Positions 9,242-11,208 of a DNA stretch of 32,000 nucleotides are shown piece by piece. The position numbers were made by a program, and so were the translations under genes. Source of the stretch: Candidatus Saccharimonadota bacterium (lineage in GTDB: Archaea; Micrarchaeota; Micrarchaeia; Micrarchaeales; Micrarchaeaceae); assembly GCA_963698035.1 (NCBI GenBank), contig OY969114.1, forward strand, positions 300,001 through 332,000. The letters are read 5' to 3'. The notes below the pieces were generated by a model, which was not told the origin of the DNA, did no database searches, and worked only from the letters and a program-made list of their open reading frames with translations. Every line of letters starts with the position of its first letter. Position 1 is the first letter of the stretch.

Positions 9242-11208
9242 ATGCTAAATCAGGGTAATCCGGGTGCACCAAAGCTCTCAGAGGTAGAGGTGCAGATGGT
9301 GGACCAGAATAAACAGAATATAGTTAGCAACATAAACAACGTGAGGCCGGAGGCGGCGCAGGCGGACTCTAAGGACGCTATAGATCCAATTCTTGCAGTA
9401 TACCACAGGACCATCGAGGAGATAGAGAAGATGCCGGTGATAGAGAAGACCATGACGGTCTGCCCGGAGTGCAAGCTCATAATCAACGGCACAATCTACA
9501 AGGACGGGGACAACGTCATGATAAGGAAGTACTGCCCGGAGCACGGCTGGACCATAGAGAAGTACTGGGAGGACTACGACATGTACATGAAGATGAGGAG
9601 TTACAACTACTTACGGAAGGGGCTTCGACAACCCCAACTACATAACGACACAAGGGGGAGAACTGCCCGTTCGACTGCGGGATGTGCGAGAGGCACAAGT
9701 CCCACACCGGGCTTGCCAACGTCGTCATAACGAACAGATGCCACCTCTCCTGCTGGTACTGCTTCTTCTACGCAAAGGAGGGCGAGGCGATATACGAGCC
9801 GAGCATGGCCGAGATAAGACAAGATATTCATGAACCTGAGGAGCCAGAAGCCGATACCGGCCAACGCCCTCCAGATAACCGGAGGAGAGCCGACGATGCA
9901 CCCGCAGCATAGTCGAGATAGTCAAGATGGCAAAGGAGGCGGGCTTCGACCAGATACAGCTCAACACCACAGGAATAAACATAGGGCTGAACCCGGACAT
10001 GGCGATACAAGCTGAGGCACGCGGGCGTCAGCACGCTCTACATGAGCTTCGACGGGGTCAGCAAGAGGGCAAACCCGAAGAACCACTGGGAGGCGCCGCT
10101 CGACGCTCGATGCGGCAGGAAGGCAGGCATAGGCGTGGTGCTTGTGCCTACAGTAATAAGGACGATAAACGACCACGAGCTCGGGGCGATGATCAACTTC
10201 GCGCTCAACAACATAGACGTGGTAAGGGCGGTAAACTTCCAGCCGGTCTCGCTGGTGGGAAGGATGCCTGCAAGGCTGAGGGAGAAGCAGAGGATATCGA
10301 TACCCGGCGCGATAAAGCTCATAGAGGAGCAGACCAACGGCGTAATAAGGAAGGAGCACTGGTTCTCAGTGCCGTACGTCGGCGGGATAAACAAGTTCAT
10401 AGAGGCGCTCACGGGCGAGTACAAGTACGACCTCTCGATACACTTCGCATGCGGCGCAGGATCTACATCTTCCTGGACACGGACAACAAGATAATACCGA
10501 TAACAAAGTTCGTCGACGCGCAGGGGCTGCTGGAGCACCTGCAGAAGGCGGTCAACGAGATGGAGGGAAGTCGCAAGCTCGAGAGGAAGGCTCATAGCGC
10601 TCAAGGCGCTTCTCGGCATGAACAAGTTCATAGACAAGAAGAAGCAGCCGAAGAGCGTCAACTTCACCAAGATGCTCATGTCGCTGTTCCTGAAGCACGA
10701 CTTCGCGACCATGGGCAAGTTCCAGATGAAGACCCTGTTCCTCGGAATGATGCACTTCCAGGACGAGTACACTTACGACATACACAGGGTCGAGAAGTGC
10801 GACATACACTACGCGATGCCTGACGGCGAGGTGCTTCCGTTCTGCACATTCAACGTATTCCCGGAGGTATACAGGGACAAGATACAGAAGCAGTATAGCA
10901 TACCTGCATCCGAGTGGCAGAAGACCCACCCGGACTGGGCCTACGCGAAGGACAAGTACATCAGGAACATAAAGGAGCTCGAGGCAAGTCCGGAGTACAT
11001 AAACACCTACTCCAAGATGATCGACTACTTTGCATTGCCGTCAAACGGCGGAAAGGGCGTGATAAACTTCGCAAACCAGAAGCCGAAGGTCGCGCAGCAG
11101 ATAGTGCAGAAGGCATCTGGATCTACATCCGAGATACCTGCCGGCTTCGAGGAGGTTTCCAGAGATTCGTGCGGATGTGGAAGCGAATCTTGCGGGTGCT
11201 CTGACTGA
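9242..11208 (+). pseudogene. Tes/GDGT-MAS-like (COG1964-type) radical SAM protein, interrupted by about 7 frameshifts (pseudogene or local consensus errors)
   Basis: It has an N-terminal Zn ribbon (CPECK...CPEHG), an auxiliary cluster motif (NCPFDCGMCERHKSHT), the radical SAM CHLSCWYC (Cx3Cx2C) and GGEPT. The C-terminal part contains [35 protein letters not shown] and a CGCGSESCGC tail. These pieces lie in 8 successive frame segments corresponding to ORF-track entries 9242, 9682, 9830, 9927, 10042 and 10618. Confidence 0.7.

Follow-up and report, generated by a model that had tools for sequence, protein, structure and literature searches.

A tetraether lipid synthase gene readable only through frame changes in a Micrarchaeota contig: very likely a chimeric assembly patch

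Has a small archaeal symbiont just lost an enzyme that remodels its membrane lipids, or is the sequence that suggests this wrong? This question is raised by a stretch of contig OY969114.1, in which the gene for the tetraether lipid synthase Tes can be followed only by changing reading frame again and again. Tes, a radical S-adenosylmethionine (SAM) enzyme, links two archaeol lipids through their tails and so makes a membrane-spanning glycerol dialkyl glycerol tetraether (GDGT). We analyzed the whole 32,000-nt stretch (hereafter the window; all coordinates are window positions). If the frameshifts were real, a DPANN symbiont would just have lost a lipid-remodelling enzyme that all of its relatives have kept, which would bear on the source of tetraether membranes. 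Our analysis points elsewhere: it is very likely that the region 9410-10960 is a chimeric, low-accuracy patch of the assembly and that the frame hopping is not biology. The two features on which the question turns are the following.

9242 to 11208, + strand: coding region of Tes (tetraether lipid synthase / GDGT-MAS family radical SAM protein), readable only via frame changes; an open reading frame (ORF) of 654 codons once the insertions and deletions (indels) are corrected
9410 to 10960, + strand: divergent block of about 1551 nt, 8-20% different from short-read contigs of the same strain and holding every indel

Three-frame translation of the coding region gave eight segments: 9242-9610 (frame 2), 9612-9656 (frame 0), 9658-9816 (frame 1), 9818-9907 (frame 2), 9909-10007 (frame 0), 10009-10461 (frame 1), 10461-10589 (frame 0), and 10591-11205 (frame 1). 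There are no in-frame stops inside any of them, and the stitched product is 653 aa long and collinear with intact homologues. An initial annotation of this DNA, made from its letters, had described a single Tes/GDGT-MAS protein readable only by frame hopping, and its eight segments were thus reproduced. The family assignment made there was also borne out. Against the NCBIfam equivalog NF045702 ('tetraether lipid synthase Tes'), the stitched protein reaches 653.5 bits (cutoff 450, E = 1.7e-196) over positions 1-485 of the 486 in the profile. It contains a Radical_SAM domain (PF04055, E = 4e-23, residues 160-319), within which the Cx3Cx2C motif (C166-HLS-C170-WY-C173) is invariant in our homologue alignment A1, and a Zn_ribbon_HMPTM domain (PF23545, E = 1.7e-13, residues 66-110) with an invariant CPEC...CPEH pattern. 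In addition, the CPxDCGxC, C-terminal HxxCG, CxIHY and PFC motifs align with those of MJ0619 (7TOL) and are invariant among 10 homologues; the cluster-ligand roles of the auxiliary-cluster cysteines are taken from the published structure of MJ0619 (7TOL). By its sequence, the gene is an orthologue of archaeal Tes in a Micrarchaeota (DPANN) genome, with the corresponding predicted activity.

At the DNA level, the closest relative is a Joint Genome Institute (JGI) metagenome contig, L163, and its alignment places the indels base by base up to position 10250. Ten single-base indels are secure and probably 12 are present (seven insertions and five deletions), all in the 980 nt between 9611 and 10590.

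9611, + strand: extra base T (window TAC-T-TAC, L163 TAC-TAT)
9643 to 9652, + strand: two single-base deletions (at about 9644 and about 9652, from the DNA alignment to L163), which jointly mimic a +1 shift
9817, + strand: extra base (ATA-A-GAC)
9906 to 9908, + strand: extra base inside CCGCAGCATAG, exact base ambiguous
10005 to 10007, + strand: extra base inside GCGATACAAG, exact base ambiguous
10102 to 10117, + strand: compensated pair, +1 at about 10102 and -1 at about 10117
10461 to 10463, + strand: missing base at about 10462 (window GGA-T_C-TAC, nearest relatives GGN-TGC-TAC)
10568 to 10576, + strand: probable compensated -1/+1 pair (window GGAAGTCGCAAG, read as G-S-R-K; relatives GGN-AAG-NGC-AAG, read as G-K-S/G-K)
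10587 to 10590, + strand: extra base at about 10588 (window AGGAAG-G-CTC, AGGAAG-CTC in L039 and L048)

Most of these changes lie outside homopolymer runs of at least three bases. The initial annotation had counted seven junctions; they are real, but the number of indels behind them was set too low. One of them had been placed as an insertion in a run of five G at 9656. The alignment with L163 shows two one-base deletions instead, and the G run itself (9653-9657) is not the lesion; when the two deletions are filled, the conserved Y-x-N-D-T-K-G motif is restored in the corrected translation. The compensated pair at about 10102 and 10117 had been overlooked and came to light in the profile alignment with a relaxed penalty and in the alignment with L163. 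The frame-2 stretch between its two members reads TLDA(A), which equals the family consensus, and correction of the pair turns 'EAPLDARCGRKAGIG' into the consensus-like 'EAPL(T/A)LDAARKAGIG'. The pair at 10568-10576, which is not among the secure ones, probably accounts for the sole two singleton residues of the block, S443 and R444 (consensus K-S/G).

A frameshift-aware alignment of the window DNA against a profile built from 80 homologues, a kind of comparison that the initial annotation had proposed, confirmed the frameshifts. Seven events were found with a strict penalty and nine with a relaxed one, all of them inside 9611-10590, and 14 of 15 intact control loci gave no event. Moreover, a blastx frame-switch scan of positions 4000-16000 placed junctions only within 9615-10605. 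Since the junctions are confined to this interval and the Pfam-recognisable genes elsewhere in the window each keep to a single ORF, the frame switching is not due to chance; if 10 indels were placed uniformly at random along 32 kb, the chance that a given 1.55-kb block received every one of them would, by simple arithmetic, be about 7e-14.

The same strain could be followed in independent data. Using the exact products of the two genes that neighbour Tes, we found two short-read contigs from run ERR10755947, L164 (Logan ERR10755947_123366, 52,115 bp) and L001, which match the window on either side of the block.

1 to 9409, no strand assigned: left flank, 100% identical to L164 (0 mismatches, 0 gaps)
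10961 to 12271, no strand assigned: right flank, 100% identical to L001 over 1,311 nt

Past 9409, L164 shows 8 mismatches in the 84 nt of 9410-9493 and ends at window position 9529. L001 begins at 10787. Its 30 mismatches are confined to 10791-10960, with 20 at third codon positions, and its nine amino-acid changes are all to states common in homologues. Thus, the two flanks are identical to same-strain contigs right up to sharp borders, and the sequence between these borders diverges by 8-20%, the local disagreement that an assembly artefact would leave. Both contigs break inside Tes, and they overlap the block only at 9410-9529 and 10787-10960, short of the first (9611) and the last (about 10590) indel. 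The eight variants of L164 are those of L163, a sibling strain about 97.6% identical (96-99% upstream), in which the same allele continues for about 1 kb more and ends at window position 10250. L163 spans eight of the indel sites and carries none of them, and L164 lacks the flank differences that are specific to L163. Where the window is odd, therefore, these contigs show another Tes allele for the same strain, one that is phylogenetically congruent.

The composition and the relationships of the block also set it apart. Its G+C content at third codon positions (GC3) is 0.81-0.91 (codons 46-573); the two ends of Tes have 0.64-0.67, the 21 other genes of the window 0.49-0.71, and the L163 and L001 Tes alleles 0.67-0.82. 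Segment by segment, its nearest relatives are L114, L087, L021, L048 and L039 (about 90% nt identity), which belong to another Micrarchaeota clade. Its identity to L131 is 72-87%. In the flanking genes, L131 is the nearest other genome, and it is also the one to which the L163 and L001 alleles come closest. Both GC3 and nearest relatives of the block are hence incongruent with the contig that hosts it, as would be expected of a foreign patch. Two features of Tes in general were also observed. Its nt identity between Micrarchaeota species is 85-92%, compared with about 70-85% for neighbouring genes, and even native alleles are richer in GC3 than the genes around them (0.70-0.82 in L163 and L131). 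This may reflect strong codon selection. This conservation at the DNA level suggests that Tes is a hot spot for assembly breaks.

The initial annotation had left two options open, a wrong patch of the assembly and a recent pseudogene. The first is favoured and the second is not, because the stitched protein shows no amino-acid decay (see below), the block has an origin unlike that of its flanks, and short-read contigs of the same strain carry another allele. The organism very probably has an intact native tes allele like those of L163, L164 and L001. The patch could have arisen as follows. As Tes is 85-92% identical between species whose neighbouring genes share only 70-85%, short-read assembly graphs of Micrarchaeota that presumably co-occur in the sample would branch and break in this gene. 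The break was apparently bridged or overwritten by a consensus of reads from another, GC3-richer Micrarchaeota population, or from mixed populations. The patch looks like a thin long-read consensus, in which leftover indel errors are typical, or like a mis-polished stretch; its remaining errors are almost all indels. We infer this technical route, whether gap bridging, collapsed consensus or mis-polishing, from the pattern just described. A natural origin, on the other hand, is very unlikely: it would require a 1.5-kb allelic replacement and a dozen indels beside 10.7 kb of flank without a single substitution, and with no substitution in the adjoining flanks, the natural accumulation of 10-12 indels is irreconcilable.

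Insertion-biased +/-1 noise was also seen in Tes of other public assemblies with Flye-style 'contig_N' names, and the excess of insertions in the block resembles that of L002. In L002 (European Nucleotide Archive (ENA) ERZ25039480 contig_67573), 11 frameshift events (8 insertions and 3 deletions) occur in Tes, and the blastx scan shows frame switches along the whole locus; in L003 (ERZ25039471 contig_10302), two events fall in Tes and a third in a different gene. These two loci are only partly useful as clean cases of indel-only noise, given that L002 deviates at 10 conserved columns and L003 belongs to a more distant lineage.

Several points weigh against an assembly patch. The indels were seen in the assembled sequence, and the artefact route is a proposal. 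The short-read contigs leave out the middle 1.26 kb (9529-10787) of this strain's native allele; L163, which covers it up to 10250, is from a sibling. De Bruijn contigs, too, can become chimeric where genes are conserved. Run ERR10755947 and the assembly may come from the same sample. Among 160 loci, no donor of the block exceeds about 92% nt identity (the best reach about 90-92%). Finally, the indel-only spectrum would fit a thin long-read consensus better than a single raw read.

Exact-product look-ups with fragment ORFs of the window (162, 196 and 150 aa) and with P0121 gave no record. A search of a 5.8-billion-protein database with the full stitched protein, its N-terminal 123 aa, and the 334-aa product of L163 found no intact near-identical copy and no sibling-level fragments; the best full-length hits share 81-84% identity, come from Micrarchaeota metagenome-assembled genomes (MAGs), some of them mislabelled, and are all 590-705 aa long. 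L163 was the sole close relative in the scan of JGI metagenome contigs, the source genome was not among the matches of the GTDB genome scan, and no literature was found on run ERR10755947.

The best surviving alternative, although a very improbable one, is a genuine and very recent pseudogene, in which one clone would have exchanged the core of its Tes for that of a divergent Micrarchaeota allele by recombination, with many +/-1 indels inactivating the gene in the exchange or after it, so that the lineage would no longer make tetraethers of its own. The deposited sequence is indeed broken, a mosaic allele could in principle come from natural recombination, and loss of a lipid gene is conceivable in Micrarchaeota, which depend on host lipids or precursors (Ca. 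Micrarchaeum harzensis, PMC8975820). We therefore examined the stitched protein for decay, using as the species set the best 80 of 343 Micrarchaeota relatives found in the GTDB scan (species representatives). It deviates at none of the 262 columns conserved at 97% or more across these species, and intact homologues deviate at 1.1 of the same columns on average (maximum 6). Two singleton residues occur in 450 codons of the stitched block, against a mean of 1.9 in homologues, and the probable indel pair at 10568-10576 explains both. The ratio of nonsynonymous to synonymous substitution rates (dN/dS) of the block against L163, L114 and L087 is 0.11-0.14, within or close to the 0.04-0.10 of intact pairs. 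Coding sense is thus under no visible relaxation: the dozen indels stand beside unchanged constrained columns, a low dN/dS (down to about 0.11) and no stops. From general mutation spectra, 10-12 fixed indels without replacements at constrained sites would be unlike neutral decay. Moreover, flanks 100% identical to independent contigs over 10.7 kb leave no time for 10-12 neutral indels, and the ORFs of the block were found on no independent contig. The initial annotation had also suggested a look at sibling loci, and this speaks the same way: L163 has none of the eight indels whose sites it spans, and in each of the 80 GTDB species representatives, the closed ARM-1 genome included, Tes reads through as a single ORF.

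Next in standing, with a slim probability, is the explanation that the block is the native allele and only its indels are erroneous, L164, L001 and L163 being chimeric contigs that drifted into the Tes of a co-occurring relative at their ends. In both Logan contigs, the divergence is indeed limited to the final or initial 100-200 nt, where the contig breaks off, the picture that graph tangles give. Against this, the variants of L164 match L163, an independent JGI contig that carries the same allele for 1 kb from sibling flanks, and the absence of L163-specific flank differences from L164 means that reads joining the flank of this strain to that allele exist. The incongruent GC3 and nearest relatives of the block argue in the same direction, and even here the frame hopping would still be an artefact. 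Slimmer again is the probability that the block is real in full, with the 1.5-kb tes core swapped for a divergent allele and riddled with +/-1 indels by error-prone synthesis or repair with almost no substitutions. If true, it would be the first documented loss of Tes in the phylum as well as a case of natural local hypermutation confined to indels. Programmed recoding, that is, ribosomal frameshifting or transcriptional slippage at each junction to give a full-length enzyme, has nothing in its favour beyond the perfect stitched product and is already effectively refuted by the need for 10-12 sites, some +1 and some -1, whose contexts in the profile and L163 alignments have neither a slippery motif nor a downstream structure in common, by two pairs compensated within 4-15 nt, and by the lack of need for a frameshift in any homologue among 160 loci.

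If the region is an assembly patch, most likely the organism has a normal tes gene, an ordinary member of its family, and only the assembly is unusual. The consequence is then a practical one. A chimeric patch of this kind leads annotation pipelines to call a pseudogene or fragments, and surveys of the presence or absence of Tes in DPANN could miscount. The truncated 162-aa product of 9242-9730 is already present in public protein sets. About 12 truncated N-terminal Tes fragments of 83-216 aa (P0122-P0136) were also observed in the protein database. Split Tes genes in several public assemblies will affect surveys of the presence and intactness of Tes in MAGs. More generally, genes conserved at the DNA level among probably co-occurring species are weak points of metagenome assemblies.

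The contig on which the 162-aa fragment is encoded is 776,853 bp long, so that the source of the window is a small DPANN genome in nearly complete form. The guess of a small-genome archaeon in the initial annotation was right, and its relatives are Micrarchaeota. In cultured Micrarchaeota, lipid pathways are incomplete and the GDGT-0 membranes resemble those of the host (PMC8975820). Zeng et al. 2022, who identified Tes, noted homologues in DPANN MAGs and wondered about a host origin (PMC8941075). In the loci collected here (L004-L083; L079 is AP024486, ARM-1), Tes is surrounded by housekeeping genes (Nop5, PheS/PheT), and the contigs reach 1 Mb. Because it is intact in the best 80 of 343 relatives amid housekeeping genes on long contigs, Tes is encoded by DPANN genomes and is not host contamination, which answers the point left open in that study (PMC8941075).

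The other Pfam-recognised genes of the window are each a single ORF with full profile coverage. They include ribonucleotide reductase, family-B DNA polymerase, PheS, PheT, a class-II aminoacyl-tRNA synthetase, an M16 peptidase, Nop5, RNase HII, ribosomal protein L1, a DEAD-box helicase, and parts of an ABC transporter. No tRNA or tmRNA genes were found by ARAGORN in the 32-kb window. A 264-codon open frame at 2059-2850 (+ strand) gives a weak partial match to RpiB (LacAB_rpiB, profile 35-114 of 138, E = 1e-5); its sequence is identical in L164 and is therefore not an assembly problem. The immediate neighbours of Tes are both intact.

8202 to 9113, + strand: Nop5/Nop56-like gene, upstream of Tes
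11236 to 11907, + strand: p223, downstream neighbour of Tes

The product of p223 has 223 aa and belongs to no Pfam or NCBIfam family; a single-sequence AlphaFold model has a mean predicted local distance difference test (pLDDT) score of 50. The gene lies directly 3' of Tes on the same strand in all 153 loci of the set L004-L163 in which both are detectable (all 80 GTDB representatives and the closed ARM-1 among them), with a typical identity of 37-47% across loci. It is thus a conserved, uncharacterised neighbour ("partner") of Tes in Micrarchaeota.

How does this locus compare with known systems? The second-best family of the stitched protein is the radical SAM (seleno)protein TrsS (NCBIfam NF045646), which shares the N-terminal half (residues 69-372). 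Membership in TrsS was rejected, as the score of 298 bits is below the cutoff of 490 and the profile is covered only in part. GDGT-MAS MJ0619 of Methanocaldococcus jannaschii (PDB 7TOL/7TOM) matches with E = 1.2e-124 (residues 68-562 against 23-516), and the Cys motifs of its N-terminal metal site, auxiliary clusters and radical SAM cluster align with the stitched protein. Over the aligned core, the window protein is a moderately divergent homologue of MJ0619, from which it differs by its extra termini.

The likeness to the characterised Tes proteins (Saci_0703, MA_1486 and Maeo_0574; Zeng et al. 2022, PMC8941075) extends over the end-to-end match to NF045702 and over the order of domains, namely an N-terminal zinc ribbon, CPxDCGxC, the Cx3Cx2C core, and the MHFxDxY...CxIHY C-terminal domain. 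Two differences stand against it. First, proteins of the Micrarchaeota clade are extended by about 60 aa at the N terminus, and a subset of them ends in a Cys-rich tail, both known from sequence. This variable tail (…DSCGCGSESCGCSD in the window; 11100-11205, columns 640-721 of alignment A1) is found in one Micrarchaeota Tes subgroup and is absent from another, reaches longer CGCG repeats in some relatives, and has no counterpart in MJ0619. Second, the window as written is not a single ORF: Tes members have an uninterrupted frame, and 10-12 single-base corrections are needed here, which we attribute to the assembly and not to the organism.

With the known class of artefacts in metagenomes, pseudo-frameshifts caused by residual indel errors and chimeric or collapsed consensus at conserved genes, the locus shares single-base indels that keep coding sense, confinement to a block that disagrees with same-strain contigs which break in the same gene, and noise like that of L002 and L003. 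It differs from the L002 type in one respect: the rest of the contig appears clean, so that the disturbance is local and not assembly-wide.

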